IMG/VR virus record: IMGVR_UViG_3300029554_000001
Strand: one strand, 5' to 3'
Length of the DNA stretch: 64,000 nucleotides
Source: a virus
Both the position numbers and the translations under genes were made by a program. The notes beneath the pieces are model-generated. The model ran no database searches, was not told the DNA's origin, and saw only the letters and a program-made list of their open reading frames with translations. Below are positions 28,284-50,579 of this stretch, piece by piece (position 1 is the first letter of the stretch; each line of letters starts with the position of its first letter).

Positions 28284-28289
28284 AACTAC

Positions 28290-28366: not shown

Positions 28367-28522
28367 TTAGTCTAAGTCTAACTTAGATATATCTATCTGG
28401 AAGAATTCAATCAGCTATTCAACACTTAGGTGTTGCATGTACCAATTAAATTCAAACTCAGAAGTGATATACTACTTCAGAATAGAACCAATCTTTGCTT
28501 TATTACTAAGACTATCCTACAT
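28367..28522 (-). CDS. mini-ORF E, 51 aa with four TAG codons: M-Q(TAG)-DSLSNKAKIGSILK-Q-YITSEFEFNWYMQHLSVE-Q-LIEFFQIDISKLDLD
   Basis: AAAGGAGG SD then ATG-TAG; hydrophilic and unlike the other nine; open only if TAG is read. Confidence 0.4.
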
Positions 28523-28663
28523 GAATTCCTCCTTTCTTTTAACTCGTTAGTGTTGTGACTAACTTGTTATTCGTTATCTTATTGGTCAGATAAGATAGAG
28601 TCTTAGCTGCAACTAAGCACTCTATGAAGGGTAGGAGCATATGTTCCTACCCTTTAACAATGC

Positions 28664-29005
28664 TTAGATGTTATCCCACTGATTAGTGATGAAATTAAAG
28701 CATCGAACAGTTCCACCAATCTTTTTCTCCCAGCGGGGGTTGTTTTTGTTCAATGTATAAGTGGCAAGGCGACTTTTAGCAGCCGTGACAATAATATCAT
28801 ACTGACCGAGTTCCTGAAGAGACTTGATATAGTTCATGAGTTTGACATCATTTTCAAATTCGATGTCAATTGTTCTGGAAGCACTGACAATATCAGTGCA
28901 ATGGTCATCCACACCTTCAGGTTTCCACCCCTGTTCAAAGTGGCTGATAATAGAATCAATATCATAGATGCAGATGCGTTTAACAAACTTAACAGTGTAA
29001 TTCAT
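28664..29005 (-). CDS. hypothetical protein
   Basis: ORF track; AAAGGAAAA SD. Confidence 0.65.
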   Translation of the reverse strand: MNYTVKFVKRICIYDIDSIISHFEQGWKPEGVDDHCTDIVSASRTIDIEFENDVKLMNYIKSLQELGQYDIIVTAAKSRLATYTLNKNNPRWEKKIGGTVRCFNFITNQWDNI

Positions 29006-29034
29006 TTCTTTTTTCCTTTCTGTTTATAAAAGTC

Positions 29035-29063
29035 TTGACAAGCACAATTTCATGTGTTATACT
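29035..29063 (+). promoter_or_regulatory. consensus promoter TTGACA-17-TATACT pointing against the leftward block (cassette F)
   Basis: TTGACA 29035-29040, TGT-TATACT 29058-29063, followed by hairpin 29073-29104; possible end at hairpin GGAGAGAT/ATCTCTCC plus T-rich tail near 29257-29290. Confidence 0.55.
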
Positions 29064-29122
29064 TGTTATTAGAATAAGAGAAGTGCCTACACACCTCTCT
29101 TATTAATAAGCTTTTATTCTTC

Positions 29123-29197
29123 TTAGAAATTATAGTTCTTTAGAATTACAACTACAACGACGTTTAAAGAATAATTGACTGAAATAATCTTCTTCAT
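29123..29197 (-). CDS. mini-ORF F, 24 aa, the only copy without TAG: MKKIISVNYSLNVVVVVILKNYNF
   Basis: AAGGAGG SD; codon 2 is AAG; differs from G2 and H mostly at third codon positions. Confidence 0.65.
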   Translation of the reverse strand: MKKIISVNYSLNVVVVVILKNYNF

Positions 29198-29326
29198 TGT
29201 TTTACCTCCTTAAGAAGATAAAAGCAAACAAGGATGTAGGTCCTTATTCACTACAGAGGAGAGATGTGGGGATATCTCTCCTTCTGTTATATTTGAGTAG
29301 TTTAACGACTTGCTCAGGTCGAGAGG

Positions 29327-29734
29327 TTAGTTCTGATAATCGTCAGAAACTAATACCCATTCTTCCCCATTACTATCAATAAGATGAATGGTTGTTCTAT
29401 CCTCACTGATAGTTACATTCTGAAGATTAGAGAACCAATCCTCAGTTGTTGTGTAGCTATCCTCAACTCCTTTGTTATAACCAGCGTTATATGCACCAGT
29501 TACGTCTTCGTTAGTGAAGACTTCTGCTGGTGCACTTTTACTGTAATCAATATGGTCAAGAATAACAGCGATTCCAATCGCAAGGACAACTACCAGAATA
29601 AACATAGCTCTGGGATTCATGCTCTTATTTTGAGCTATTGCTTCAAGATTAATAACAAGACCGTACACAATCATGATAGCAACAATAGCAATAGCAACAA
29701 TGGTAACATTGGTAATATTGATAAACATCTTCAT
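29327..29734 (-). CDS. membrane protein (two TM helices)
   Basis: ORF track; the SD spacing fits the second ATG (29728) better; NITNVTIVAIAIVAIMIVYGLVI and MFILVVVLAIGIAVIL. Confidence 0.65.
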   Translation of the reverse strand: MKMFINITNVTIVAIAIVAIMIVYGLVINLEAIAQNKSMNPRAMFILVVVLAIGIAVILDHIDYSKSAPAEVFTNEDVTGAYNAGYNKGVEDSYTTTEDWFSNLQNVTISEDRTTIHLIDSNGEEWVLVSDDYQN

Positions 29735-29762
29735 TTCCTTTCTGGTTTTTTACGTCTTTTCC

Positions 29763-29791
29763 TTGACAAACAATTATTTATGTGTTATTAT
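29763..29791 (+). promoter_or_regulatory. consensus promoter TTGACA-17-TATTAT pointing against the leftward block (cassette G)
   Basis: TTGACA 29763-29768, TGT-TATTAT 29786-29791, followed by hairpin 29802-29819. Confidence 0.55.
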
Positions 29792-29837
29792 AATGATGAG
29801 AAGGTTGCCTACACAACCTCCTTAATGCATAATTATC

Positions 29838-29912
29838 TTAGAAGTTGTGATTCTTCAAGATAATCATACTAACTATGCCGAGAACATAGTCAATAAATGT
29901 TATTTTCTACAT
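29838..29912 (-). CDS. mini-ORF G1, 24 aa: M-Q(TAG)-KITFIDYVLGIVSMIILKNHNF
   Basis: AAGGTGA SD then ATG-TAG; stop TAA. Confidence 0.6.
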
Positions 29913-30056
29913 TTTATCACCTTTTCATAATTTAATACTTAATTATAAATTATGTAGGTAATCTATAATTAAGCAGACTGCTTATTGCGACTAAGCACTC
30001 TATAAGATAGAGGAAGATACTCTTATCTTCCTCTACCCTAACAATGCTTATTATGC

Positions 30057-30131
30057 TCAGAAGTTATAATTCTTCAGTATGGCAACTGTTACAACATTAA
30101 GAGCATAATTTACGGAAATCGTTTTCTACAT
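30057..30131 (-). CDS. mini-ORF G2, 24 aa: M-Q(TAG)-KTISVNYALNVVTVAILKNYNF
   Basis: AAAGGAGG SD then ATG-TAG; stop TGA. Confidence 0.6.
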
Positions 30132-30219
30132 GATGATTTCCTCCTTTCCGAGTGCGATTTGGATTACTAAGCACTCTATTAAGCCCACCATCAATTACGA
30201 TGATGGGCTTTAACAATGC

Positions 30220-30390
30220 TCAGATAGGGATACAAATAACATATCCATCATCCAAGAATCGGGGATAAAGCTTATTCTTATTGAGAAGCTTATCTCCAAT
30301 CTCTTTTGCTTCCTCCTCATTAGAGGCAGACACGAATACTGTATCACAACCACTAATGATGGAAGTGATATATTTGACTTTGTATGTCAT
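30220..30390 (-). CDS. hypothetical 56-aa protein (below the ORF-track cutoff)
   Basis: ATG 30390 follows AAAGGAATAAAAG; MTYKVKYITSIISGCDTVFVSASNEEEAKEIGDKLL...; stop TGA. Confidence 0.55.
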   Translation of the reverse strand: MTYKVKYITSIISGCDTVFVSASNEEEAKEIGDKLLNKNKLYPRFLDDGYVICIPI

Positions 30391-30417
30391 TTTCTTTTAT
30401 TCCTTTCTATAAAAGTC

Positions 30418-30446
30418 TTGACAAATACAACTTTATATGTTATACT
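30418..30446 (+). promoter_or_regulatory. consensus promoter TTGACA-17-TATACT pointing against the leftward block (cassette H)
   Basis: TTGACA 30418-30423, TGT-TATACT 30441-30446, hairpin 30457-30486; candidate end at GGGACACTT/GAAGTGTCCC plus TTTTGCTTTGTTT (30650-30686). Confidence 0.6.
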
Positions 30447-30509
30447 TGTTGTTGTAGTAAGAAAGATGCCTATACACCTTTCTTACAAAAAGAGTGATTA
30501 TTAACCTTA

Positions 30510-34947: not shown

Positions 34948-35585
34948 AATTTTATATCTTTCTTAATAACTTCTCTTTTACCATCAAGTCCAACAATAAT
35001 AACATCTTCATTCTTAGTATTAAGAATAACAAAAGGTCTTTGGACACCGCAACAATTCTTTTCAGCAGCTTCAAGAGCAGTAAGAATATGTTGTTCAGGA
35101 GTAAAATCTTTCATATATTTAGTAGTAGCATAAAGACTTCCTTTAGCAGTTACCTCACCACAACCGACAGCAGAATAACCAGTCAAAGGTTCAAGAACAG
35201 AATAATCATTCTGAATTTCATAAAGTTTTCCATCAATACCTACTAAGAAATTACCACCTTTATCTCCATTATCTTTAATACCATTTTCAAAAAGAGTAAT
35301 AATATTAGGAACAAAAGTAGTAACCATATATTCATGATTTACTTTAGTTTCACCAGAAGGAATTTTATATTTATCAATCTCAGGAAATAAAGTTTTACTA
35401 TATTTAAGCAAATCAATATGTCTAAAAGTAGAAGTACTACCCATAACAACATTTTTCAAAGTAGTATTTCTAAATACTTTAGGATTAGATTCGACATCTT
35501 GAGTATAACCATTACTACCAAGGCTATCTGCACCAATCCAAGTGACATTATTTTTCTTATCCGTAAAACCAACGATACAAGTCAT
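34944..35585 (-). CDS. Ntn-hydrolase, HslV/proteasome beta-like (tentative)
   Basis: N-terminus MTCIVGFTDKKNNVTWIGADSLGSNGYT (Thr directly after Met, then GxD..G) resembles HslV-type Thr1 proteases. Confidence 0.5.
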   Translation of the reverse strand: MTCIVGFTDKKNNVTWIGADSLGSNGYTQDVESNPKVFRNTTLKNVVMGSTSTFRHIDLLKYSKTLFPEIDKYKIPSGETKVNHEYMVTTFVPNIITLFENGIKDNGDKGGNFLVGIDGKLYEIQNDYSVLEPLTGYSAVGCGEVTAKGSLYATTKYMKDFTPEQHILTALEAAEKNCCGVQRPFVILNTKNEDVIIVGLDGKREVIKKDIKL

Positions 35586-35604
35586 AATTAATTTTTACCT
35601 CTAT

Positions 35605-36378
35605 TTAAGTATTTTTTAATTTATACAGAGTTTCTTTTTTTACAGTGTTTTTTTCAATCAATCCAAGTTCAATAAGAGCTTCTAAATATTTTCTTAAAGT
35701 AGTAGAAGATAAAGATGTTTTCTGTAATAGAAATTTTAAAGTAATAGCTTCTTTATATTTCCAACCATTAGGAAAAGTTTTGTTTAATGCTTGCCTTCTA
35801 TCAATAAGCATTTTAATTAAAAGATAAGTATTAAGTAAACTATCTACTTTAAGTTTAGATTTTGTTGTTTTATCTTTTAAACAATATTTCATAATTATTA
35901 AATAATCTTTAATACTTAAAGTAGTAAAATTATTAATAATAATTTCATCATAAAGTTCAATAGATAACATATATTGAGGAAATCTTTGATATTGTGTTAA
36001 AAGTTTTTCTTTTTGCAATTCAATATCTTTTTCACAAGTATTTATATCAAATTCACAACAATTAAAGTAATCTCCATATTTAGGAATATCAATAACTGAC
36101 TCAGAGATAATTTCTTTTTTTCTATTAACAATAGTATTTGATAGAAGATATAAAGATGATAGAATTTTACTAATTTTAGAAGCTTTAGTTTTTTGATTTT
36201 CCATGCTATCATCTACATAACATTCTTCTAAAAATAAAATACTACTATTTACTTTTCCAAGCATGTTTCTATTAATGGCTAAAAATAGATATGTTAAAGA
36301 AGTATATGAATTTACTCTGTTAGAAAGTTCTATTATTCCATTAGGAATCTTTACAAACAAAGAATCATATTTGCTCAA
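35605..36378 (-). CDS. first gene of the leftward block; possible winged-helix DNA-binding protein
   Basis: TTG start 7 nt after AGGAG; C-terminus TSLSSTTLRKYLEALIELGLIEK is HTH-like. Confidence 0.55.
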   Translation of the reverse strand: MSKYDSLFVKIPNGIIELSNRVNSYTSLTYLFLAINRNMLGKVNSSILFLEECYVDDSMENQKTKASKISKILSSLYLLSNTIVNRKKEIISESVIDIPKYGDYFNCCEFDINTCEKDIELQKEKLLTQYQRFPQYMLSIELYDEIIINNFTTLSIKDYLIIMKYCLKDKTTKSKLKVDSLLNTYLLIKMLIDRRQALNKTFPNGWKYKEAITLKFLLQKTSLSSTTLRKYLEALIELGLIEKNTVKKETLYKLKNT

Positions 36379-36414
36379 AAATATACTCCTACTTTCTTAT
36401 TTTATTTCAAAAGA

Positions 36415-36443
36415 AGAATACCATAATTATTTTTCCTTGTCAA
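36415..36443 (-). promoter_or_regulatory. leftward promoter TTGACA-17-TATTCT
   Basis: Minus strand TTGACA (36443-36438), 17 bp, TATTCT (36420-36415); 35 bp upstream of 35605..36378. Confidence 0.6.
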
Positions 36444-36746
36444 GTCTTTTGATAAGCTTTTCTTTAAATTTTCAAAAATCTTTTAAATATAGAAAAATAA
36501 AGACTAAAGTGCATTGAATGCCAAGCCTTGATAAAGGCGCAGGCATATTGTCTTTCTTTGTTATATATAGAGTCTATATTAGAGTACCCCATAAAGGACG
36601 ATAATTTTTCCCTTAAATTCTCTATATTCTGGAGCATTTTACAATCGTCAAGAAATGTATGAGTAGTTTTAACATTTCCGTAAGATGCGTAAAATTTTGT
36701 ATGAGTAAAATTGACATTTTTAATTTTGAATATTTCTTCTGATGAA

Positions 36747-36776
36747 AGTATAACATACAAAACATAGAAAAGTCAA
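36747..36776 (-). promoter_or_regulatory. leftward promoter TTGACT-18-TATACT
   Basis: Minus strand TTGACT (36776-36771), 18 bp, TATACT (36752-36747); divergent from the rightward promoter at 36815. Confidence 0.5.
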
Positions 36777-36814
36777 GGGGTTTATGAACATCACTAAAAA
36801 ATTTTCGGAAATAG

Positions 36815-36843
36815 TTGACAGGAATAGAAACATGTGTTACAAT
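36815..36843 (+). promoter_or_regulatory. rightward promoter TTGACA-17-TACAAT
   Basis: TTGACA 36815-36820, TGT-TACAAT 36838-36843; an in-frame ATG at 36850 lies at the expected transcription start. Confidence 0.65.
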
Positions 36844-36963
36844 TCAGACATGAAAGAAAAGCGGATGAATACCAATGAGAATTGTGAATTCGTCCAAAAA
36901 AATATAGAAAGAGAGGTACAACAATGTATAATTCTTAAGCAAAAAAGCAATGCAAAAGCATAG

Positions 36964-37701
36964 ATGAATACATTAAAGCAACCGATGGAGATTGTAAAAA
37001 ATATAGATATAGACCTTAATAAGAGGACAATTTTTTTAGATGTAGATGATGTTTTGTTAGATAGTTCAGCGGCAGTAGTAGCTATTTTAAATTAGCGTTA
37101 TGGTTTAAATAAGACTTTAGATGATTTGGTTGACTGGGGATACAAAAGTATTTATAGAAATTTAACTAAAGAACAAGTTAGTGAAATTTACGAATCAGAA
37201 AAATTTTGGTCATTAGTAAAGCCTAATGAAATATTAATGAAAGCTTTAGAAGATTCCGAAGAAGATGAACAAGGAATCTGGCGACAATATAATTGGATAT
37301 TACTTACCAAAGGCTCAAAAGAATCACTACAGAAGAAGCTTGATTATTTAAATAAGATTCCGTTTTTTAAACGTAATGAATCGAAATGGCGGTATTTTGG
37401 ATTAGGTCATGGAGAGAAGAAAGAAGATGTTCATATGTTAGGACGGATTCAAATTGATGATAATTATAGCTTTCTTAATAGAACTGATGCAGATTTAAAG
37501 ATTCTGGTAAGGAATGGTAAAGAGACAAGATTTAATCGACCTAAAGTTGAGACAGAAAATCTTGAAAATTTATATATTGTAGATAATATTTCACAAGTTT
37601 TTGAAATTTTAGAATTTATAACAAAATTAGATACTGAAGATATTGACCTTGATGGTTTTGATATTATGGATATGATTACTGAGGTTAGTCAAATTATTTA
37701 A
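36964..37701 (+). CDS. HAD-superfamily 5'(3')-deoxyribonucleotidase-like protein (NT5C-like), one in-frame TAG
   Basis: Motif I FLDVDDVLLDS; TAG at 37093 joins this N-terminus to ORF 37126..37701 in the same frame; the frame is also open upstream through TAG 36961 to ATG 36865/36850, so the start is uncertain. Confidence 0.6.
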
Positions 37702-37726
37702 AATTCCAGCGAAGGAAGGTAACTAA

Positions 37727-39735
37727 GTGCGTTTATTTTACACCGTTAAGCTTAACAGTGCATTAATTAAAGAAAACGGCTATAATTTAGACATTAGTTT
37801 TCAAGATTGTTTAAAGAGTAATCTAATTGTTTCTTTAGCAGATAGTCAAATGCTAAAGAGTATTCGTGATATAACTGGTTAGAAGATTGATAGAGTCCAG
37901 CTTGAGGAATGGTACTCTGAAAGAGATAAATTAAAAAAAGGAAAAAACAGCAAAAATAATAGGGATAGAATTAAAGAGCTACAAAGAAAAATCTATAACA
38001 TGATGTTTATACCACAGTATATTACTGTAAGCATGGAAAATGTTAAATCTTATCGAGATATCTATGAAAATGGTTTTTCTTTTACTATTGATTGTGGAGA
38101 GCCTATTATTAAAACTGTTAAAAATAAAGATGGTTTAAATGAAGACATAGTTATCGGTTACGAGAAAGTAACGTATCATTATAAACGTTTATCTTGTTCA
38201 GCATCTCAAGCACGAGTAAGCACAGTAGTTTTTTGTGAAGAAACTATTTTGTCAGAATTAAAGAGAAGGCTTGATAATGGACGTAATATGGATGATTACA
38301 AAATCGCCCCTAGTAAGTATAATGCATATTTTGGTTTATATTCGAGTGCAATAAAAGAAGTTACCAAACCAAGATTTTGTATAATTCCAGATTATTCAGA
38401 AGTAAGACCTGTTGATGTTGATTTTGTGATTGAACAACCAGCAGACCAAGATGATATTGTCGAAGAAAGAACAGTAGACGTTGAATTTAATATGGTCGAT
38501 GGTTCTGGTTTAATTAGTCCTCAAATGGCTGAACAATGGGGAAAAGACCTTGAAGAAGATTATACTCCTTGTCAATTTTGTATCCGCTGTGCTTTCACAA
38601 AAGGGGCTGTAAATGAATTTGATTTTGTTGACTGGTGTAAAGAACTTAACAACGAGAATTATTTAATTAAAGATGTTTACGGCAACTATGTAGATGTAAG
38701 AAATATTGATGTTATTCTTACAGAAGGTATGGCAAAACTTTGGAGTGCTTGGGGTTCTCAAGAAAGTTTTGAAGAAAATTGTCAAAAGAATGGTATCATT
38801 TGGGGAGTAACCAAATATGCTCCTAAACAAGACAAAGAAGTAAATACAGCAAATTATCAATTTTTGCAAACTTTAAATCTTACGCCAGAAATGGTAAAAG
38901 ATGTTTGTAAACTAACAGTTGATTATATTCAAGGTGTAAGTTATGATAATATTTATTACACTTTATTATTCCTTCTTGGCGAAAATTTGACTCAAGATAA
39001 TATTGAAAATTATATGAAATCAAGCGATAATTATTGGTTAAAGTCTCTTGTTTTAAATAATTCTTTGTTATATGATAAATATTCTAAAGAAAAAGTAAGA
39101 GATTTTATTATTAGAAAAATTGAACTTGCTTGTCTTGGAAAAATTATGGTTCATGGTAATTTTCAATGTATTGTAGTTGATGGGTATGCTTTTATGCAAG
39201 CTGCTACTGGTCAAAAAGTAACTGGTTTGTTAAATGCAGGAGAAATGTATTCGCAATTTTGGAATAAGAGAAATGTTACTAAAGTAGACACAATGCGTAG
39301 CCCACTCACTCATTTTAGCGAGCACTACCCTGTTGAATTAAAGAATACAGAAGAAATGAAAAAGTGGTACAAGTACAGTTATAGTGGAGTAATTGTTAAT
39401 TGCCACGATGCACATACAATGCATTGGGCAGGAAGTGACTATGACTATGACATTATATTTACTTGCGATAATCCAAATTTTATTAATGGTGTTTATCCAG
39501 ACCAAAGAGTAGTAACTTACAATGCTAAAAAACCTCACAAAAAGCCAGCGAGAGAAATGACTGATTTGGATTTGTATAATACTGATACATTCAGTTTTGG
39601 TACAAGAATTGGTCAAATTACCAATATTTGTTCTACATTTGTTGGTATGTTACCTTTGTTTGAAAAAGGTAGTAAAGAAGAAAAATTGTTGCAAGATAGA
39701 GTTAGGTCGTGTTGTGCGGCTCAATCGAGACAGAT
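37727..39735 (+). CDS. RdRP-family (YonO/QDE-1-like) single-subunit RNA polymerase, exon 1
   Basis: GTG after GAAGGAAGG; TAG at 37880 in frame; ordered motifs TMRSPLTHFSEH, AGSDYDYDIIF (DxDxD) and CAAQSRQI- parallel R.P..hp.d, GGDlDGD and aVD..KtG of two-barrel RdRP-like polymerases. Confidence 0.7.
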
Positions 39736-40928
39736 TAATTAAATAGTCTGGCTATTTGGTAACAAATAGAAAAATTTACATGGTGAACCTATAAATATAG
39801 GGTGTCATTCTCACTTTTGGAATTATAGGAAATGATAATTAAGAGAATGGCTAACAGGGGAAGCCTAAGTTGTTTAATATGGTAATCCTGTGGTAGAAGA
39901 ATTGTTTAATTATAAAAGAAAGGAGGAAATTCAATGGGTGGATGGAATTTTATTGATAGAACTGGAATGACCTTTGGAAAATTAAAAGTACAAAAGTATT
40001 TAGGGAATAAAAAGTGGTTGTGTCACTGTGAGTGTGGAAATGATTGTATTGTTAATTCAGATAATCTTCCCATTAACGGCAAAAGAAGAATGACAAAATC
40101 TTGTGGCTGTTTGAAAGAAAGTCGCCTAATAAAGAATTTAGATTTCTTTGATGTTATTGATACTGAAGAAAAGGCTTATATTTTAGGATTTTTAGCCTCG
40201 GATGGGTGTGTTACTTATAATGAAGAAACAAAATCTTATTATATAAAAGTAGTTGTTAATTCAATTGATAGAGATTTACTAATACAATTCAAAAAAGCTT
40301 TTGGAACAAAAGCAGAAGTGAAAATTTTTAAAACATTTACACACTTACCCCAAGGTGGCGAATGTGAATCTGAAATGAGTAGTTTGTTATTATGCAGTAA
40401 GCATTTAACTAAACAATTAATAAAATATGGAGTAACACCAAAGAAAAGTTTAACTCTTGATATTGATTATTCTCTTGTTCCAGATAATTTAAAGAGACAC
40501 TTTTGGAGAGGCTTGTTTGATGGTGACGGAACTTTTGGGCTTTTTGGTAAGAAAAAACTTTTAGAGGTTAGTTTGACTACATCAAAAAATATGGCTGAAC
40601 ATACAAAAGAAGAAATCCTTAAGTTTTTTCCAGAAAGTAAAATTGGATGTTATTTAAGAAAAGAATGTTCTGGTAACACTTACAACATGATTTTCACTAC
40701 TCAAAAAGATGGGTTAAATTTTTTATCTTATATGTATGAAAATAGTAATATAAGATTAGAAAGAAAATATCAAAAATATTTAGAAATTAAAAACAATTCT
40801 TAAACTCAAACGACTATCCCGAGAGGGAGTACATTTAAGGTGAAATTCCTTATTTGGAAGTGCCATGCTCCTTGTTTACAAGGATGAAGATATAGTCTAG
40901 CCCTTTAAGGAAACTAAAGGTAGTAGCG
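39736..40928 (+). mobile_element. group I intron (boundaries +/- a few nt) carrying a LAGLIDADG ORF
   Basis: Joining 39735 (U) to 40929 (after a G) restores AAQSRQ-I-DKTKIG in frame; the 3' core CAAACGACTATCCCGAGAGGGAGTA ... GATATAGTCTAG is shared with the two terminase introns. Confidence 0.6.
39934..40803 (+). CDS. LAGLIDADG homing endonuclease (double-motif)
   Basis: AAAGGAGG SD; motifs YILGFLASDGCV and FWRGLFDGDGTF; no TAG codons. Confidence 0.85.
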   Translation: MGGWNFIDRTGMTFGKLKVQKYLGNKKWLCHCECGNDCIVNSDNLPINGKRRMTKSCGCLKESRLIKNLDFFDVIDTEEKAYILGFLASDGCVTYNEETKSYYIKVVVNSIDRDLLIQFKKAFGTKAEVKIFKTFTHLPQGGECESEMSSLLLCSKHLTKQLIKYGVTPKKSLTLDIDYSLVPDNLKRHFWRGLFDGDGTFGLFGKKKLLEVSLTTSKNMAEHTKEEILKFFPESKIGCYLRKECSGNTYNMIFTTQKDGLNFLSYMYENSNIRLERKYQKYLEIKNNS

Positions 40929-41835
40929 AGATAAAACCAAGATTGGCGAAAATGTTAAAGCAGAAGCAACAATTTGGAAACAATATCAACATATAAATCC
41001 AGAAGATTCTCCAGAAGAAATTAAAAGGAAAGAATTTCTTAATTCTCTCTTAGCTGATAAAAAGCCTTATTTTTTCCGATACAAATATAACACTTTAAGT
41101 AAAGAATACAATGAATTTGTTAAGAAAAACGACCAAGATTGCCAGCTTAGATTTGCTTGCTCTTTAAAAGAGTTGTTAGCTAAAGATGAGAATTTATTAA
41201 ATGAAAGTCAAAAAGAATTTATTAGATATTATAAACATTTTCTTCCTGTGGTTGATTCTAATTGTGTGATGAATCAAATTTGTAAATATATTGAAAATGT
41301 TGATTTCCATATTAGAGAAAAAGTACGTTCTTCTCAAAACTTTGATTATCATACTTTAATGTCTGATGGTTTTGTAATTAATAAAAAGATATATGAACAA
41401 ATTAACGATTTAGTATCAAGTAGAATTAAGGAATGGGCAGCTAAAAGAACAGAAAAAGTTCTTGACGGAGCATTTGCAAGTAAGACAGTAAATCCAAGCA
41501 AGGTTCTTGATAGAGATTTAGAATATAATATTTTAAGACAAGATTTATTAACTAATATTTGTTCTAATGAAGAACAATTAGCAAACCATTTAATATATTT
41601 ATTTTATGTAGATAAACAGTCTTATAACAAGAATATTCTTTGGGCTTTAGTTGGAAGACAAATATACGAGAATATAAGAAAAAAGACCTCTGTTTATTAT
41701 TTTCCTCAAAAGAATCCTAATGGTTCTTTAGAGTTTTTATATGAGAAGTATTCTATTGAAAGAGTGCTTGTAAGTCATGAAGAGGAAATTGAAGAAGAGG
41801 AAAAAGGTATAAAGGAGGAATCTTTTTATGATTGA
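40929..41835 (+). CDS. RdRP-family RNA polymerase, exon 2
   Basis: Frame open from 40921; DKTKIGENV...LADKKPYFFRYKY...; ends TGA 41833-41835 (ORF 41173..41835 is its tail). Confidence 0.65.
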
Positions 41836-42862
41836 CATTTATGATGAAGAGGGTTATATTCAGGAAGTTCTTTAGAATGGTTTTTCTCAAAAATGGTAGA
41901 GAGATGCTGCTTTATTGGTAAAGTATTTTAAAACAGAATATGCACTTGGAAATTAGCCTTCTTGGAATAAAGAATGGGTTAAAGAAACGATTAAAGAAAA
42001 GTGTAAAAAGTATGTACCAACTTATGACCCTAATGTAACTTTTAATAGAGTTAATAAGTTGGTAGATACAACTTGGAAGAATTGGAAAGTTGACCCTGAT
42101 AACCTAAAAGAATCATCTTAGCTTAGGAAAATAAAAGAGATAAAAATTCCCGAAGCGGTATTGAACTGGTTTTTAAATCTTGATACATATTATATAACAG
42201 ACGAAGAAGTAAAAGATATTAAATCAAGGCGTAAGAATGTTAGTGTAAAGAATCACCCAATTACAATGGCACGAGCTAAATATTTATTTACTTTATATGT
42301 ATGGACAAAAATTTAGGAAAACTATTTAAGTAGACCTAATATACATTATCTTGAGAAATATAATAAGAAGTTAAGAAATGATGCTGATTTAAAGCCAAGT
42401 TTTTCTCTCACGAAAGAAAGAAACGTATTATTTGATTTAGGATTCATAGATATAAATCATGGACTTGGAGTAACTCCTATATTTATGGACAAAGAGGATT
42501 TCAAAGAAGCGGAGAAAGATGAAAAGGTAATTTTATTGGGTCGGAATGACCTCTATTTGTGCGGAAAATGGCTTGAAATGAGGAAATTCGGAACTTTTAA
42601 GTGTCAAAAATGTCGGAAATTATTGCCACGTTCGGCAAATAAAAGAGGTTAGCCAAGAAAATATTGTGAAGAATGTGCAAAATCTTTGAAAACACATACT
42701 AACGAAAAATATTATTGCATTAATTGTGGAAAAGAAATTGAACATAATAGTGTAACATAGAGAATTCATAAACGTTGCGCAACTTGTCAAGACCTTTATC
42801 GTAAAATGAAAGACAGGGAAAGAAAAAGAAATTTGGAAAATTCCACAAATAAGGCGATTTAA
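41828..42862 (+). CDS. hypothetical protein with C-terminal zinc-ribbon pairs; seven in-frame TAG codons
   Basis: ATG overlaps the upstream TGA; 344 codons free of TAA/TGA but with 7 TAG; CQKC...CEEC...CINC...CATC. Confidence 0.65.
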
Positions 42863-42992
42863 TCGACTTGTGTTTTAACCATATAAAATAAGGCAAAAAC
42901 GACAACTTTTTAAAAAAATAATATCTGCGTAGGTGGAAGGAAGAATAGAAACGCTCCTTCCAAATTTAAAAATAAAAAGGATTGATTAATTT

Positions 42993-43427
42993 ATGATTAA
43001 GGTTTCTAAATACGAGCGTAAAGAATTAGAGAGAGTTGGTCTTCTTAAGAATAGACAGGTTGGTTTGAATCCACAGGATGCAAATTATACTGTTACTAAT
43101 AGAGAACATGTAGGTCGTGATAAGACAATTTATGTTGCTGAAGAACCTGAAATTATGCTTTTCTTGGGTAAGTATGATGATTTGAATCTTCAGAGAATTA
43201 GTGTTAATCAGTATAACAAGCTTGTTGAAAAGAAGATTTTGAATGATGCAAATACTCAGCGTTGGGGCGAATATAAAGTCAACGCTATTTGTTTTCAAGA
43301 TTCTTACGGTGTTTATCGTTGTAAGAAAATTTCTAAGATTATGCTTGAACTTGGTATTTGGAGCAACAACAAGTCTAAGGGGAGCTACAAACCCCACAAG
43401 GTTGTTGAAGTACATACTGAAGATTAA
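42993..43427 (+). CDS. hypothetical protein
   Basis: ORF track; AAAGGA SD. Confidence 0.65.
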   Translation: MIKVSKYERKELERVGLLKNRQVGLNPQDANYTVTNREHVGRDKTIYVAEEPEIMLFLGKYDDLNLQRISVNQYNKLVEKKILNDANTQRWGEYKVNAICFQDSYGVYRCKKISKIMLELGIWSNNKSKGSYKPHKVVEVHTED

Positions 43428-43471
43428 TAGAAACTATTTCTAAAATTTACGAAAAAATTTTTCAAAAACTC

Positions 43472-43500
43472 TTGACAAGGATATAAAATTGTGTTATATA
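43472..43500 (+). promoter_or_regulatory. promoter TTGACA-17-TATATA
   Basis: TTGACA 43472-43477, TGT-TATATA 43495-43500, upstream of the HU gene. Confidence 0.65.
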
Positions 43501-43593
43501 TAAAACAAGTCAAGGGGAAGCCTTGATAAATAAAGGTTTTAAAAGGTAATTTTAAAAATAAAATTTAAAAGATTTAAAGGAGTATTTAATATT

Positions 43594-43869
43594 ATGGTTA
43601 AGAATGAATTTATTGCTGCTATTAAGGACACTGAGGCTTGTGCAGATGTTTCCAAGAAGGATATTGAGGCTGTTATCAAGGGTATGAGCGAGGTTCTGCT
43701 TGATGTTATTGCTAAGAATGATGCAGTTAAGGTTGGCTCTGTAGTTACCATTGGTGGTAAGCATCGTGACGAGCGCGTTGGACACAACCCTGCGACTGGA
43801 GAAAAGCTTACCATTGCTGCTCGTGACGGGGTGCCCTACGCAAAATTTAGCTCTGTAGCAAAGGCCTAA
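43594..43869 (+). CDS. HU/IHF-family DNA-binding protein
   Basis: 91 aa; arm region RDERVGHNPATGEKLTIAARDGVPYAKFS matches R.GRNP.TGE.I.I......F; AAAGGAG SD. Confidence 0.9.
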   Translation: MVKNEFIAAIKDTEACADVSKKDIEAVIKGMSEVLLDVIAKNDAVKVGSVVTIGGKHRDERVGHNPATGEKLTIAARDGVPYAKFSSVAKA

Positions 43870-43933
43870 TAGGAAAAATAATTTACAAAGTAGATTTCTT
43901 TCGAATAAAGAAATCTATATAAACTAAAAGAAT

Positions 43934-43970
43934 AGCTCCAAGTCATCTTATAGTGGCTTGGGGCTTTTTA
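43934..43970 (+). terminator. intrinsic terminator
   Basis: AGCTCCAAG / CTTGGGGCT stem followed by TTTTT. Confidence 0.7.
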
Positions 43971-43983
43971 TATAGGTGATACA

Positions 43984-44829
43984 ATGACAAGATTTAGATT
44001 GATTAAAGCAATTATGGAGGAAACAGGATATGATAAAGAAACTGTTTCTAATGTAATTGAATCTTTAGAATACAAAATCCTTGACACCATTGCAATGGAA
44101 GATTAGCTGGATTTTGTGTTTGGTTCTATTTATGGGACTACCAAACCATCTCATAAAATTACAGGATATGTTTCGATGCTCCCTGAAATTAGAAAACAAA
44201 AAGCTTGGTCTTCTGCCTTTTTAGGATATCCAATGATTAAGTTTAGTAGAGAGGCTAAGAATTGTGATAGAGTTTATGCAAATGAATTCTTTGCTTGGCC
44301 TGAAAATAGATATACTTCGTTAGCTAGGAAGTATAGACAAGATGTTGGAGACCCTGAAATTCCAGAATACGAAGGTTTATCTGAAGAAAAAATTCAAGAG
44401 TTGTGTCAAAAAGCGGATGAAGAGAAAAAAGGTCCTCAGTCTCCCCATCAAAAAGCAAGAGAGGCGAGCAACGAAAGAAAAAGGATTAAACATCAAGAAG
44501 CTCGTCATGCTTTAATGAGGCAAATGGACTTAGAAAAACAAAGAGAAAATGGAGTTCCCGAGGAAGATTTGATTGAGCGACCATTTGAAGATATTTTAGA
44601 AGACATGAAAGCTGAATGGTGGCAAACTCACGAAGATTTTCAAAAAAACTGGAAACCATATTTAGCCGACCCTGAAAAAGTCAAGGAAAGGCAAGCTGCT
44701 CGTTTGCAACATGCAAAAGAGCATAAAGAGTGGATGAAACGACAAGCTGAACTCAAAAATAAAAGAAACGAAGTTTGGCAAGGAGAAATTAACGATGACG
44801 GAATAGCAGTTGAGAAAAACGACGGTTGA
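43984..44829 (+). CDS. protein with an HU-like N-terminal fold and a long charged C-terminal region; one TAG
   Basis: ATG 43984 after AGGTGA; TAG 44104 joins MTRFRLIKAIMEETGYDKETVSNVIESLEYKILDTIAMED to ORF 44116..44829 in frame. Confidence 0.6.
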
Positions 44830-45568
44830 ATGGTTTTATCGTTGGGTTGGTTTTAGCGTGGCCAATGGTAAACATAAATGGATTATTGATATTTATAATA
44901 GGATAATTCCCTTACCAGCAAACCATATGATGCTGTATACAGAACCTTGGTGTGCAGCTACCGTTTCTGCTCTTGGAGAGAGATTAAATTTGACGGAATA
45001 TATTTATCCTGAATGCAGTTGTAACAGGATGATAGCTCTTTACCAGAAGAATGGAAGATGGGAAGAAAGAGACAATTACAAACCTCAAATTGGAGATTTG
45101 TGTTTTTACGATTGGCAAGACAATGGAGTTGGAGAATGTGCTGGAGAAGCTGACCATGTTGGTATGGTTTGTGACGTAAGTGGAAATACCTTTAAAGTTT
45201 TAGAAGGAAATTATTCCAATGAAGTCAAGAGTCGCACAATGCAAATTGATGGTAAATATATTAGAGGTTTTGGTTTACCAAATTATGCTAAAGCTGCAAT
45301 CGGTTATAAAGCTCCAGTTGATAAAACCAATATTAGAACTATGGCTGGTCAAGTACCCTATTTAAACATAGATAATAATAACGAAGCTGTTAAAATGGTT
45401 AAGATTCTTTTTAATAGTTTAGGGTTTAATGCTGGGACAGATACAATTTTTGACGAATAGCTGGAAAATGTAGTAAAACAATACCAAAAGATGTATGGTT
45501 TGAGATAGAATGGAGTAATTAATAGAGATGTTTGGTTGTTGTTACTTTAGGGAAAGCCCAAAAAGTAA
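44795..45568 (+). CDS. CHAP-domain endolysin with C-terminal PG_binding_1-like domain; four in-frame TAG codons
   Basis: ATG 44795 is 9 nt after AAGGAG; TAG at codon 4 (44804) and at 45458, 45506, 45548; catalytic PWCAATVS and DHVGMV; the tail AVKMVKILFNSLGF...VVKQYQKMYGL-Q-NGVINRDVW appears only by reading TAG; stop TAA 45566. Confidence 0.7.
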
Positions 45569-45598
45569 CTAATTATTAAGAGAAGGATGGTGAATTTT

Positions 45599-45802
45599 AT
45601 GGCGGGACCCACTCGCAGAAAATCTCTTAAAGCTATAATCAAAGAAGTGACAGTTGGATTAGCCAATACTTTCCGTAATAATATTAATGAAAATAACAAG
45701 AATATTGCAGAAACAGTGGATAATTTACCTGATATTGCTATCAGCAAAGAATAGCCAGTTGATTAGAAAGCAGGAGATTTCTGGTTTCAAATTGTAGATT
45801 AA
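45599..45802 (+). CDS. small hypothetical protein ending GDFWFQIVD; two TAG codons
   Basis: ATG after AAGGATGGTGA; TAG at 45752 and 45764; its C-terminus matches that of 57045..57428. Confidence 0.5.
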
Positions 45803-45843
45803 TTAAATATTTTTGAATTTAAAAGGTTTAGAAGGTGTGTTAA

Positions 45844-47487
45844 ATGGCTAAATTAACAAACAATAGGGCCAAAGCTACCATTGCTAAAGAATAGAAAAGA
45901 TTAGATGCCATTCAAAAGAAAATGGAGACACAAAGGAAAAAAGAAGAATTTGGAGAATCTTGGAAATATTCTTTAAAAGATGAGCATAAACAGGCTCTAA
46001 AAGAAATTGTTGGGGACTTTGGTACACCAAATCTTGTAGATTCTGTTGATTATAATAGTTTTTTTGACCCTATTAATTTTTATAAAGAAGAAGATGGAAG
46101 TGTAAGACAGCTTGATTATAAGAAATACTTGGAATATGAAGAAGCTTATCAAGAAGTTATTGATGATTGTGATAAAATTATAAATGATGAAATAGATACT
46201 TCTAATGATTCAGCTAAAGAGCAACTAAGTACCCATCTTACTAAAAAAACAGAAAAGAAAAAGAGTAAACCTAAGATACCCGAATATTTACAAAAGCTTT
46301 ATTAGAATTGGACAAAATATTTTAATAGGTTTGTTCCATTGTATGATAAATATGTATGTTCATGTTGTGGAAAAGCATTACCACAAGATAAATATTTCCT
46401 TGCATACAATGAGGGGAATTTGGGTAGAATAGAAGCTAATGGAAAAATGCACACGCATATTTGTATAGATTGTTGTAAAAATTTATACGAATATTTGTTT
46501 TATGAAAAAGCAGACAAAGATGGCGAAAAAGCAATGAAATGGCTTTGTAGTTATCTTAATATATATTATGATGATGTTAGTTATCTTAAAGCTAAAAAAA
46601 CAATGGAGGAGAAAGATAGAAAAACTCATATAGTTGAAGAATATATGAGTGTTATTTCTCGCAGTGCTACTTTAAAAGGAAAAGTTTTTTTGGAATCGCC
46701 CGATGTTGATGTGAATAAAAATAAAGGGGATTCAAAGGCTGATAAAATAATTAACAGCAATACAGGCAATGTGCCTGAAGATTTAGAAGAAGAATGGAGT
46801 AAAGCTGACCTCGAAGCAAAAAGACAAGTTATCAAGATGGTTGGTTATGACCCGTTTTATTTTGAAATTGAAAAAGATAGAAAAATTCTTTATAAAGATT
46901 TACTTGGTATGATGGAACAGGGTATGGAGCTTGATGGACTTAAAGTCCAAGCTGCTATTTAGATTGTCCTTTCTTTTAAAAATATTCGTGAATTAAATGA
47001 AAAATATAGAAAGAAAAGTGATGAAGATGCTCCTGTTTCAGAATTAAAAGCGTTATCTGAATTAAAGAAGAAAGAACTCGAAACAATTACAAGCTTTAGT
47101 AGAGATAACGGCTTTGGCGAACGTTACGCTATTAGTAAAGCCAAAGGTGAAAACACATTCTCTGGTATTATGGCTAAGATGAATGAAATGAAATATGAAA
47201 ATGCTATTCTTAATATGTATGATGTTGAGACTAGCAAGAGTATTAATCAAGCTGCTGATGCAAGTTTTGCAGCCATTTTCAATCAACTTAGCATGAGTGA
47301 AGCGGAAGTGTACAAAACTTGTCAAGATTAGCTTAAAAAATTGCTTTCGTTGCAGAGAGAAAACGCCACCCTTACTGAAAATTTAAGATTGGCTAAACGT
47401 GAATTAGCTGAGAAAAAATTGGAAGAAGAAAAACGTCAGTACGATAAAGAAAATGGTGATGATGGCGATAATTGGGGTGGTTATTAA
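45844..47487 (+). CDS. 547-aa protein directly upstream of terL (terminase small subunit by position only); four TAG codons
   Basis: One frame links ATG 45844, ORF 45922..46305 and ORF 46339..46962 on to TAA 47485 through TAG at 45892, 46303, 46960, 47329; CSCCG...CIDCC zinc-ribbon-like; coiled-coil C-terminus. Confidence 0.55.
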
Positions 47488-48020
47488 TGATTAATGTTAT
47501 TTTTAATGATTTTAGTTATGAATTACTCCCTAAAAGAAAAGAAATTTTTGAAAAATATACCAAGATAATTTAGTGGGGAAGAGCAAACCCAACAAGATTT
47601 ATCGAAGATTTTTTTAAAATATAGCTAACTGATATGCAAAAGTATGTTTTGCTAAGTAGTTGGTGTCCTGCAAACTGCGTATGGCTTATGGGTCGTAACA
47701 GTGGTAAGTCATTTTTGGCTGCACCTTTTATGATGGCAAGAGCACTTTTATTACCAAATACTAATACATACATTATGGCTCCGAGTGGAGGTCAGTCTCA
47801 AGAAACATTTTAGAAGATGGAAGATATGGCGAAAGGTAATATTGCTTCTTTGCTTGGAACATCTTCTGTGTTCTTAGATGAGTGTATTAGAGCAAATACT
47901 TAGGCAGACCCGTTTACTCACCCTAAGAGTGGATATACAGTTAGCTTGTATAATGGTAGTACAATTAATACGTTAAATAGTGTAATAAAGAACATCGTAG
48001 GTATAAGAAGCAATTTCAGT
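47487..48020 (+). CDS. terL: terminase large subunit, exon 1 (ATPase N-terminal part)
   Basis: ATG overlaps the upstream TAA (TAATG); Walker A GRNSGKS; four in-frame TAG; the sequence stops making sense after GIRSNFS. Confidence 0.8.
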
Positions 48021-49061
48021 GAAATCCTTATGAAAACGCTGACGTTCATAGTGATATGTTCGAAAAAATACTCCTTTAACTGCTGGGAACTTCTAAGGCT
48101 TAATTAACTAAAGCGGAATATGAAAATATAAACGTAAAAGTTGCGAAAGCAGAAAAAATAATTAAGATGACTTATGGTTAAATCCTAAAAGTTGTAATAA
48201 TGAACAATCAGCAACCAAGCTCCTGTAAAATGGAGAAGGCTCAACGACTATCTCGAAAGAGAGTAGGGGAAACCCGAAATGGGGAGATTCTTTTAATAAG
48301 AATAAGATATAGTCTAATTAATTGAAAAGAAGTGATGTAAAATAGACGAAAAAGAATATACCGTATATTAGCATATAAACAAATTAAATCGGAAGCGATA
48401 CATTGGTATGACTAACTAGCCCGTAAATAAAAGATGGGGTAAAAATGGATAGCGGTATTTAAGATAGAACAAAAATGGGGAATACAATTAGCCAGCAATA
48501 GCAAGAGCTATTTTAAAATATGGCTGGGATAATTTTAGTCATGAAATTATAAGTTCTGGCTTAAGTGTGGAAGAAGCCTGTCAATTAGAATATGATTTGA
48601 TAGAAAAATATCACACAAGAGATTCTAACTATGGGTATAATTGTACTTATGGAGGTATATATCACACTAAAACAGAAGAGGAAAAAGAAAAAATAAGTAA
48701 AAGTAACAAAAAGTTCTATGAGAGTCATTAGCATCACATGAAAGGGACACATTTATCAGAAGAAACTAAAAAACGTCTAAGTGAAATATTTAAAGATAGA
48801 GTTTTTTCTGAAGAAACGAAACAAAAAATGTCCCAAAACCATTGCAATGTAAATGGAGCAAAGAATCCAAGAGCTAAAAAGGTTCGTTGTATTGAAACAG
48901 GAGAAATATTTGAAACAGCTAAAGAAGCTGGAGAGAAATATCATAATTGTCCCTCAAATCCTCGGTGTGGAATTAGAGATTGTTGTAGGGGAAGAAGAAA
49001 AACTTCTGGAGTAGATGAAAATGGAAATGGTTTACATTGGGAATGGGTCGATTAAAAACAG
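48021..49061 (+). mobile_element. group I intron 1 in terL (boundaries +/- a few nt) with a GIY-YIG ORF
   Basis: Splicing 48020 (U) to 49062 (after a G) gives GIRSNFS-VYDEAGKID; core blocks AACTGCTGGGAAC, TGGTTAAATCCTAAA, CTCAACGACTATCTCG, GAGTAGGGG and GATATAGTCTAA recur in intron 2. Confidence 0.65.
48336..49055 (+). CDS. GIY-YIG homing endonuclease 1 (six in-frame TAG; no canonical start found)
   Basis: KEYTVY-Q-HINKLNRKRYIGMT (GIY...YIG), repeated SEETK NUMOD3-like motifs; frame open from 48336 to TAA 49053; no in-frame ATG/GTG/TTG precedes the GIY motif (frame opens TGT AAA ATA GAC), so the start is unresolved. Confidence 0.65.
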
Positions 49062-49415
49062 GTTTACGATGAGGCCGGAAAAATTGATAGGACATTCTTT
49101 GCCCTGTCTCGTCCTTTTACTGCACAGGATACAAACTTTATTACTGGTGATGGTATTAATACGGATATATATCCAAGACAGCTACCGAATAAAAAGTTAT
49201 TATTAAGTTCTGCTGAGGGTATTGACAGCGAACTTTTTGACCAATATAAAATGGCATTTGAAAAAATGTTATTAGGAGACCCAAATTATTTTGTATGTGA
49301 TATTAGTTGTGAGTTTTCATTACATCCTTTTATGAATGGTAAGCCTATGAAGCCACTGATTACATAGGATGAAGTTGATAACGCATTTGCTACTAATCCA
49401 TACAAAGCAGAACGT
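49062..49415 (+). CDS. terL: terminase large subunit, exon 2
   Basis: VYDEAGKIDRTFFALSRPFTAQD (Walker B/coupling region); one TAG at about 49365; the exon may end at 49415 or 49418. Confidence 0.75.
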
Positions 49416-50579
49416 GAGCAAATCGAAAAGAAATACTCCGCACATTTAGTGATAAGTGTGTGCATCCCATTGAACTGCTGGGAGTTCTTAAAGGTTTTTG
49501 TACTACAGCATAATTATGAAATAAGAATAAGTGCGAATGTTACGAAAGTAAAAAGAAACAAAAACATGGTGCATGGTTAAATCCTAAACACTATATAATA
49601 GATAATCAGCAGCCAAGTCTTTAACAGAGAAAGGTTCAACGACTATCCCGTGACTGGGAGTAGGGGTTGTTAAAGAATAACAACTTCGAAGTGGTGGGAC
49701 ATCTTAATGAGATGATGATATAGTCTAAGCTTATATGAAAATATAAGAAGTAGGTTGTTTTTAAGGGCGACAAGGGAAGGCCATCCTTTATACATATCCG
49801 CAAAATATGTATATAGCCCTTTATATATTAAAAATACTTTTTGCGGGAGGTTTTTAATGAAAGATGATAGAAAATGGACAGTATATATTCATACTAATAA
49901 AGCAAATCAAAAGAAATATGTTGGAATAACTAGTACTTCTGTGATAGAAAGATGGCATCATGGACATGGCTATTTAACCAAAAAGAAAGATGGAAGTTTT
50001 TGTTAGCCAGCTATGGCTTATGCAGTATTAAAATATGGATGGGAAGGTTTTTCTCATGAAGTAATAGCTGAAAATTTGACTATGGAAGAGGCTTCTTAGA
50101 TGGAAAAAGAACTGATAGAAAAATATTAGTCTAATAACAAACATTTTGGATATAATATTAAAGAGGGTGGAATAGATGGATTGCCTTCTGAAGAATCAAT
50201 TCAAAAAGCTTTATAGACAAAACTTAAGAATGGATATCACCATAGTGAAGAAACTAAAAGGAAGATATCTGAAAGTAATATGGGTAAAACTCATACTGAT
50301 TCATCTAAAGAATTGTTAAGTAAAAGCCATAGTAAAACAAAACAGAGACCGAAGGAAGTAATTCCACGGAATGATACATATAATTAGGTTTATTGCCAAT
50401 GTGTAGAAACAGGAGAGTGTTTTCCCTCAATTTCTAACGCCGCTGTTAATACTGGCTCTTACAACCCAAATATAGTTAAATGTTTAAAAGGAACAAGAAA
50501 AAGAGCTGGCGGATATCATTGGAAAGAAATAACAAAAGAAGAATATGAAGAATACTGTGCCAACAACTGAAAATACTTG
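49416..50579 (+). mobile_element. group I intron 2 in terL (5' boundary +/- 3 nt) with a GIY-YIG ORF
   Basis: Same core blocks as intron 1; ends in G at 50579; splicing gives NPYKAER(E)-YKNRFDRDGG. Confidence 0.6.
49857..50570 (+). CDS. GIY-YIG homing endonuclease 2 (five in-frame TAG)
   Basis: ATG after GGGAGG; KWTVYIHTNKANQKKYVGIT, YGWEGFSHEVI, SEETK repeats; stop TGA 50568, 9 nt before the 3' splice site. Confidence 0.75.

Follow-up and report, generated by a model that had tools for sequence, protein, structure and literature searches.

The DNA analyzed here is a stretch of 64,000 nucleotides from IMG/VR record IMGVR_UViG_3300029554_000001 (hereafter the window), which belongs to a human gut phage of about 215 kb whose relatives measure 212-220 kb. 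Positions 37727-41835 of its plus strand very probably hold one gene, composed of two exons and a group I intron and encoding a single-chain polymerase of the RNA-dependent RNA polymerase (RdRP)/YonO family. This confidence covers the gene structure, the intron and the family assignment jointly, and not a role as DNA-dependent late transcriptase. The gene is the second in a plus-strand block and, according to the open reading frame (ORF) listing and the translation, runs from a GTG start at 37727 to an end, stop codon included, at 41835. Without splicing, the frame of exon 1 is open as far as a TAA at 39740; a separate ORF of 289 codons lies at 39934-40803, and a further open frame at about 40930-41835. 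When 39735 is joined to 40929, a 971-codon ORF ending at 41835 appears. The sole in-frame stop of exon 1 is TAG 37880-37882, which is codon 52, not 51. Exon 1 contains the first barrel (VDGSG, FCIR..FTKG), the R-x-P motif and the catalytic loop. A preliminary description of this DNA had given these coordinates, a 971-codon spliced ORF with TAG 37880 read through and three ordered motifs. The coordinates and the ORF were all correct, and the three motifs are present in the spliced product, namely TMRSPLTHFSEH, WAGSDYDYDIIFTCDN and CCAAQSRQ-I-DKTKIG. Their key residues are invariant in 29 full-length homologues (R524, S525, P526 and T528; D571, D573 and D575; and, in the third motif, Q666, S667, I670, D671, K674, I675 and G676). 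The conservation of the motifs and the structure of the gene far exceed chance expectation. The coordinates of all features are listed in Table 1.

The ends of the intron were established independently of the reading-frame argument. Contigs with about 97% identity in DNA lack exactly 39736-40928, and their sequence across the site is ...AAQSRQIDKTKIG... One of them, L003, aligns to window positions 34955-39735 and 40929-43870 through its adjacent bases 7886 and 7887; it is continuous across 39735 and 40929, and therefore the window differs from it by exactly 39736-40928. L003 and a second contig, L002, are the DNA of P0001 (930 amino acids, 99% identical), an intron-less allele and the best of 957 relatives returned by the protein search, which reads uninterrupted through ...CCAAQSRQIDKTKIGENV... 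and ...SRQIDKTKIG... Both exons of the window gene are intact and 98-99% identical to P0001. The expected ligated-exon junction is ...GAGACAGAT joined to AGATAAAACC... (CAGAT/AGATAAA), and the intron-less target site is CAATCGAGACAGATAGATAAAACCAAGATTGG. The intron splits the Ile670 codon after its second base, within the invariant QS..IDK.KIG, and so does interrupt the third motif exactly as had been proposed.

Most alleles in this phage population are intron-less: 1003 sequences fall into the P0001 cluster, and none of the six IMG/VR loci with 99% identity has the intron. The exact exon-intron junction was not found in IMG/VR. It is present in three human-gut metagenome contigs, where the intron is full-length with 90-97% identity. 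Since the intron occurs in these contigs and is missing from the six loci, it is a presence/absence polymorphism in a natural phage population.

The structure of the ribozyme was obtained from eight related introns, aligned after the ORFs had been taken out of those that bear one. RNAalifold recovered P3, P4, P5, P6, P7.1, P7.2, P8, P9 and two extra hairpins between P3 and P4, with compensatory changes in 31 of 52 pairs. Addition of the invariant P7 pseudoknot gave 57 pairs in 12 helices. In this structure 95% of the cells are paired, against 79% in column shuffles (none of 500 shuffles was as high); a shift of the 3' partners by 1-3 columns lowers pairing to 32-50% of cells and the compensatory pairs from 31 of 57 to 4-12, although the structure and the covariation test rest on the same eight-intron alignment. 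The J8/7-P7 segment GAUAUAGUCUA is invariant in that alignment, and the stems of the P6 extension in relatives differ in sequence but keep their complementarity. An alternative P3 pairing through AUGGC at 39847-39851 was dropped, as the ORF-less introns place P3 at 39779-39785. In E-value mode, RF00028 matched the window at 40762-40920 (28.4 bits, E 6.8e-5), through the J8/7-P7 core GAUGAAGAUAUAGUCU, and at 39854-39934 (19.9 bits), through P4-P5. The match is split because the 870-nucleotide ORF and the two extra hairpins break the model. From its sequence we identify the insert as a group I intron, one that would splice itself with guanosine. The earlier proposal of such an intron is thus upheld by the RF00028 core match (below the gathering score), the covarying helices and the exact absence from a near-identical allele.

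The loop of P6 carries an ORF for a LAGLIDADG homing endonuclease. Its product matches PF14528 in two stretches (46.4 bits, cut-off 22.5), PF00961 (23.5 bits, cut-off 23.1) and the endonuclease family phrog_4645 (4e-43). The ORF is also intact in L087, a gut metagenome contig. At the DNA level it is similar to endonuclease genes that lie within introns of Staphylococcus phages; for the ends of the ribozyme, similar sequence occurs in unannotated parts of Enterocloster, Lactobacillus and Psychrobacillus phage DNA.

The exon-1 product (580 amino acids) matches PF05183 with 42.9 bits (E 3.6e-11; curated cut-off 23.8 bits), P0001 matches it with 48.8 bits, and 27 of the 29 homologues match as well. 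PHROG 8308, a family of unknown function, spans residues 5-947 of the spliced product as one protein. BLASTP against YonO gave E 6e-20, with 22% identity over 514 residues and the pairings SCSASQARV/SSAGQIRT, FCIRCAFTKG/FMVRLPWVKG, RSPLTHFSEH/RSPHL-FREH and DYDYD/DNDGD. In a tblastn search of phage records, SPbeta yonO (9e-14), Bacillus phage BUCT082 (40% identity), Clostridium phage c-st and Enterocloster phages were found, and some of these relatives carry the annotation 'RNA-dependent RNA polymerase'. The structure was modeled with AlphaFold on P0001, with a predicted local distance difference test (pLDDT) score of 85.6 and a predicted template modeling score of 0.80. Foldseek against the PDB returned maize and Arabidopsis RDR2 and QDE-1 as best matches (E 2.7e-17 to 2e-12, probability 1.00, about 900 columns), followed by gp66, the virion polymerase of crAss-like phage phi14:2, and then by beta' subunits of multi-subunit polymerases. 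Among predicted viral structures the best matches were phage 'RNA-dependent RNA polymerase' fragments. The assignment to the RdRP/YonO family made in the preliminary description therefore holds, with PF05183 above its cut-off and the YonO BLASTP match, and the profile and structure searches suggested there recover the two-barrel fold.

The three Asp of the catalytic loop are invariant in the 29 homologues and in those IMG/VR loci whose alignment spans the loop. Mutation of the Asp triad of YonO abolished activity (PMC5467207). The loop reads DYDYD instead of D.DGD, as noted beforehand, but this is not peculiar to the window gene. Across related IMG/VR loci it has the form D-x-D-[Y/M/L/F/G]-D, with Tyr574 in the window protein; since the fourth position is Y, M, L, F and only rarely G, a Gly does not define the wider phage family. 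Tyr or Phe in place of the Gly is the norm of the phage clade and not a defect of this gene. Eight residues, R and P included, have been listed as invariant in all two-barrel polymerases (PMC2919709), and five of them, namely R, P and the three Asp, can be placed here without ambiguity. R524 and P526, upstream of the triad, are the equivalents of Rpb1 R446 and P448. For the first-barrel Asp and Lys (Rpb2 D837, K979, K987), D258 in VDGSG and K292-G293 are invariant and align with TDGCG and VKG of YonO, so that D258 and K292 are plausible as the invariant Asp and Lys; the second basic residue of this barrel appears to be R287, not Lys.

Table 1. Features of the polymerase gene, its intron and its surroundings, and intron sites in the same gene of relatives.
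Feature	Position	Strand	Remarks
Candidate host sigma-A-type promoter	36815-36843	+	TTGACA-17-TACAAT, TG extension; 11/12 consensus match only
Shine-Dalgarno GAAGGAAGG	37711-37719	+	7 nt 5' of GTG; read from the sequence
Exon 1	37727-39735	+	codons 1-669 and two bases of codon 670; PF05183 42.9 bits on 38000-39739
In-frame TAG, codon 52, read as glutamine	37880-37882	+	TAG/CAA/CAG in relatives; flanking residues conserved; TAG kept in intron-less allele
TMRSPLTHFSEH with R-x-P motif (R524, P526)	39290-39325	+	invariant in 29 homologues; aligns with YonO RSPHL-FREH
Catalytic metal-binding loop D571-Y-D573-Y-D575	39437-39451	+	three Asp invariant; aligns with YonO DNDGD
Group I intron	39736-40928	+	1193 nt; absent from L003; RF00028 partial matches; covariation
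P1	39731-39735 with 39746-39750	+	CAGAU/GUCUG; U39735·G39746 pair at 5' splice site
P2	39752-39769	+	
P3	39779-39785 with 40861-40867	+	
Two extra hairpins between P3 and P4	39788-39853	+	both supported by compensatory changes in relatives
P4/P5	39854-39891	+	
P6	39897-39906 with 40792-40801	+	perfect 10-bp extension closing the endonuclease ORF
LAGLIDADG homing endonuclease ORF, P6 loop	39934-40803	+	289 amino acids; own ribosome-binding site AAAGGAGG; no in-frame TAG
P7	40812-40816 with 40893-40897	+	GACUA/UAGUC, invariant
P7.1	40817-40828	+	
P7.2	40836-40852	+	
P8	40869-40884	+	
P9	40902-40920	+	
Terminal G	40928	+	last intron base, directly 5' of exon 2
Exon 2	40929-41835	+	last base of codon 670 to stop codon; DKTKIG and helical C-terminal domain
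HU-like DNA-binding protein gene	43594-43869	+	downstream; PF00216 on the homologous gene in L002 and L003
Intrinsic-terminator-like hairpin	43934-43965	+	best of the plus block; 13 pairs, 6 G-C, then T run
Intron site after Asp571			L019
Intron site after Asp573			L025, L078
Intron site after AU of Ile in IGQI/TN			L018, L025, L078
Intron site after AU of Ile670			window, L016, L071
Intron site after Asp671			L077 (274 nt, without ORF), Enterocloster phage CB457P2

Several relatives carry related introns in the polymerase gene, at about five points in all and two of them inside the catalytic Asp loop, which is new here. L025 and L078 have two introns apiece. The Ile670 and IGQI/TN sites have the 5' exon GACAGAU in common, and their introns have near-identical guide and P2 sequences, which suggests that movement between sites may be guided by P1 pairing. 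In Enterocloster phage CB457P2 (L001, OP172754.1), the polymerase gene at 288-3914 is annotated as three hypothetical proteins, corresponding to exon 1, endonuclease and exon 2 (coding sequences 288-2075, 2236-2988 and 3231-3914), with the insert 4 nt from the site used in the window. In CB457P1 (L086, OP172753.1), an ORF-less intron-like stretch at about 57066-57344, in an unannotated gap of another gene, is 82% identical to the 5' part of the window intron. Both inserts look like unrecognized introns in cultured isolates. The polymerase gene of CB457P1 and of the cultured Enterocloster phages CB473P1-P3 likewise has an insert 4 nt from the site of the window.

The codon usage of the window differs between its two gene blocks. 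There are 52 in-frame TAG in 7142 codons of the plus-strand block (36784-61461; 28 ORFs), which encodes the endolysin and pieces of the terminase, and one in 8214 codons of the minus-strand block (264-36396; 43 ORFs). The sign of the GC skew changes at about 36 kb, near the switch between the blocks. At codon 52 of the polymerase gene, the window and seven other sampled relatives have TAG and three have CAA or CAG, while His, Lys and Arg occur in distant ones. Three relatives (L011, L012, L014) have TAG at the invariant Gln of AQS (residue 666 of the spliced product, 625 of P0001) and in Gln column 669 (628 of P0001). These alignments argue that TAG is read as glutamine in the late genes of this phage. 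The polymerase gene uses TAG for one of its 39 Gln codons; in the block around it the share is about 21%. Because this lone amber codon stands at position 52, no full-length polymerase would be made without TAG suppression.

A Fisher test of the TAG share (8 of 11 at codon 52 against 12 of 377 elsewhere) gave p = 1.6e-9. We rejected it as proof of selection on this TAG, since DNA haplotypes at the N-terminus are common to supposed lineages (window, L011 and L015 share one, L018 and L020 another) and the commonest-codon share at column 52 (0.73) is close to the gene average (0.71). At 37727-37790, the first 20 or so aligned codons are near-identical in DNA among the window, L011 and L015, though the L011 and L015 proteins are only 59% identical overall, and the same holds for L018 and L020; this points to mosaic recombination within the polymerase gene.

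The site at 36815-36843, upstream, is one of the two best-scoring promoter-like sites on the plus strand in 36401-56400 and a candidate promoter of the operon with the polymerase gene. The operon could possibly end at the hairpin of 43934-43965, just after the HU-like gene. Endolysin and terminase genes lie downstream of the polymerase gene, and HU-like and YonG_N-like neighbors are in common with SPbeta. Among GTDB genomes, only three contigs of metagenome-assembled genomes matched, from Clostridium sp. and Lachnospiraceae; this weak evidence, with the genome size of the relatives, points to a large phage of gut Clostridia.

The preliminary description had held that a phage polymerase would explain the scarcity of host-type promoters in the TAG-using genes, and this received soft support. 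In neither block does the total of sigma-70-like matches depart from what is expected after shuffling (84 against 83.7 and 82 against 82.9), so depletion as an overall effect was rejected; only the top-scoring sites differ, in that the TAG-free block has all three sites that score 12/12 and four of the six that score 11/12. In that block, the region 19600-30450 has perfect or near-perfect sigma-70-type promoters, many of them TG-extended, at 19631(-), 25340(-), 25369(+), 28290(+), 29035(+), 29763(+) and 30418(+), as well as 24 terminator-like hairpins against 8.5 expected, which suggests many short host-transcribed units.

A second gene of the plus block may also be interrupted. The terminase large-subunit gene at 47472-51614 (+) seems split: after a piece for the N-terminal ATPase (47472-48107) come two ORFs for GIY-YIG homing endonucleases (48408-49055 and 49755-50570) and then a 345-amino-acid ORF (50577-51614) with no PHROG match, which may, as a guess, be the missing C-terminal part of the terminase. 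RF00028 gives sub-threshold matches at 48019-48335 (26.4 bits) and at 49505-49747 (37.3 bits); the core GATATAGTC is present at 48306 and 49717. A fourth copy of this group I core word, at 16258-16266 (+) inside the minus-strand gene block, may be due to chance or may be another intron remnant (0.63 copies expected, 4 seen in total).

From these features the following course of events can be proposed. The host polymerase would transcribe the operon, and the intron would fold around the U·G pair of P1, excise itself with G40928 as its last base and thereby restore the frame of 971 residues. Ribosomes would complete the protein only when TAG is decoded, that is, after the switch to TAG as glutamine. 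By analogy with YonO, the enzyme would be DNA-dependent, with D571, D573 and D575 as catalytic residues, and would express the downstream late genes (endolysin, terminase and structural genes). The endonuclease would meanwhile spread the intron to intron-less alleles. YonO is a single-chain DNA-dependent RNA polymerase that transcribes the late genes of SPbeta (Forrest et al. 2017, PMC5467207). We consider the role of DNA-dependent late transcriptase likely, because YonO has this function in SPbeta and the window gene stands at the head of the late block. A bolder idea, which we regard as speculative and rather doubtful, is that amber codon 52 is a deliberate gate that couples the code switch to the onset of late transcription, as a feed-forward timer, in a gene whose catalytic motifs have been colonized by introns at about five points.

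Several results speak against parts of this interpretation. The gathering score of RF00028 (50 bits) was not reached when the whole window was searched; the two extra hairpins probably contribute to the poor score. Pfam hmmscan on the full spliced protein of 971 amino acids returned no family in two runs; we take the missing match to be an artefact of the HMMER speed filters, and a negative Pfam result on the spliced protein is not to be trusted. Neither the single sequence nor a 29-sequence profile found anything relevant among PDB sequences. The 64-kb window has no tRNA gene, hence no suppressor tRNA(CUA), and no promoter motif of a phage polymerase was found by eye in the intergenic regions of the late block. 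Finally, template specificity cannot be told from the sequence, and the closest solved structures are RNA-dependent enzymes.

Other explanations of the gene structure were weighed. The two halves might be separate polypeptides that form a split polymerase without splicing, like the split beta and beta' subunits of some jumbo phages. Public annotations of relatives do list the halves as separate hypothetical proteins (CB457P2, for example), and many database entries stop at the insertion site. We hold this to be very improbable: the group I core is complete and covarying, the insert is exactly missing from near-identical alleles, the break falls within a codon, and the first start codon of exon 2 comes only at 41173, so that the invariant DKTKIG..KPYFFRYKY would be lost. 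Similarly, TAG 37880 could be a true stop that closes a separate 51-codon ORF (37727-37882), with the polymerase beginning at ATG 38000, where the longest ORF starts under the standard code; the lack of a suppressor tRNA in the window fits this. However, relatives with CAA or CAG at codon 52 have one continuous ORF, invariant or near-invariant residues flank the TAG and continue up to Met92 (L43, R47, T50, E60, W62, E65, K70, I89), the segment is modeled as helices with a pLDDT of about 84, and 52 in-frame TAG occur in the surrounding block, so there is little chance of a true stop. Least probable of all is that the intron-carrying copy is a decaying, non-functional allele. The dominance of intron-less alleles, both in the P0001 cluster and among the IMG/VR loci, would agree with decay, but the exons, the intron core and the endonuclease ORF are all intact, and the same allele is full-length, at 90-97% identity, in three other gut assemblies.

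As for function, the protein might be an RNA-dependent RNA polymerase like QDE-1 or RDR2, making for instance double-stranded or antisense RNA during infection. It matches PF05183, the eukaryotic RdRP profile, whereas YonO itself does not; RDR2 and QDE-1 are its best structural matches, and several relatives are annotated as 'RNA-dependent RNA polymerase'. Nevertheless, YonO, the only characterized phage member, is DNA-dependent and transcribes late genes, and direct similarity to YonO together with the shared neighbors favors the same role for the window enzyme. In addition, the late block that the gene heads is without strong host-type promoters past the terminator at 43934, and the matched PDB entries include QDE-1 on DNA templates (7y7r, 7y7s, 7y7t). 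An RNA-dependent function thus seems improbable, though less so than the alternatives to the gene structure, and a DNA-dependent polymerase remains the preferred interpretation.

YonO-like proteins of Firmicutes phages, phage group I introns at conserved sites and TAG recoding of late genes are each already known separately. Examples of phage group I introns that carry homing endonucleases and occupy conserved sites of essential genes are those of T4 td and nrdB, of Staphylococcus phage Twort and of the SPO1 DNA polymerase gene. The window intron shares with phage group I introns the U·G pair at the 5' splice site, the terminal G, an endonuclease ORF in a peripheral loop, insertion in an invariant active-site region and presence/absence polymorphism. 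We take its P7-P7.1-P7.2-P3'-P8 layout to be like that of Twort-type IA2 introns, which presumably lack the extra hairpins between P3 and P4. It differs from known phage introns in these two hairpins, in its host gene, a YonO-type polymerase, and in the number of sites (about five) in one gene. Polymerase genes of jumbo phages also have group I introns, as in PhiPA3 (PMC11620839) and 201phi2-1 gp273/274 (PMC2919709); our literature searches returned no report of an intron in a YonO-type polymerase gene. The intron in the PhiPA3 polymerase gene has a demonstrated role in the competition of co-infecting phages (PMC11620839), and by analogy the introns described here may mediate competition between co-infecting relatives.

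Compared with YonO of SPbeta, the window protein has S.S..Q.R, R..KG, RSP and D-x-D-x-D in the same order, and its gene is also phage-encoded, with an HU-like gene (yonN beside yonO) and a YonG-like gene nearby and with late genes adjoining. However, it is about 130 residues longer, has DYDYD instead of DNDGD and alone matches PF05183, and its gene carries an intron and an amber codon, in a TAG-recoded gut phage of about 215 kb instead of a Bacillus prophage. With QDE-1 and RDR2 it shares PF05183, about 900 structural columns and a catalytic loop in the second barrel. Identity to these enzymes is only 12-14% and the template modeling scores are 0.42-0.48, which means that the domains differ in arrangement or pose; the gene here is that of a phage, and RNA-dependent activity is not expected. 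Gut phages that read TAG as glutamine (Borges et al., 10.1101/2021.08.26.457843; crAss-like and Lak phages) likewise concentrate TAG in the structural and lysis block and not in the other block, and the size of the window phage is within the range of the recoded Jade and Sapphire clades of that work (210 +/- 35 and 201 +/- 22 kb). That paper has 0 occurrences of the word polymerase, while here a polymerase gene with a single amber codon stands at the head of the recoded block.

To our knowledge, no relatives of cellular RNA polymerases are simpler than the YonO-type enzymes, and YonO of SPbeta is the only one of them to have been characterized biochemically. Neither a promoter nor any initiation factor is known for it (PMC5467207). 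The clade described here is large (957 database matches), is nearer to the eukaryotic polymerases of RNA interference than YonO is, and has an aromatic residue in the loop, which makes it useful for studies of structure, function and evolution. The split public annotations of 'RNA-dependent RNA polymerase' fragments are open to correction. The cultured Enterocloster phages, whose intron lies only a few bases from the site in the window, make splicing testable in the laboratory. A polymerase gene at the head of the recoded block and with an amber codon of its own is a concrete handle on recoding as a timer of phage gene expression.

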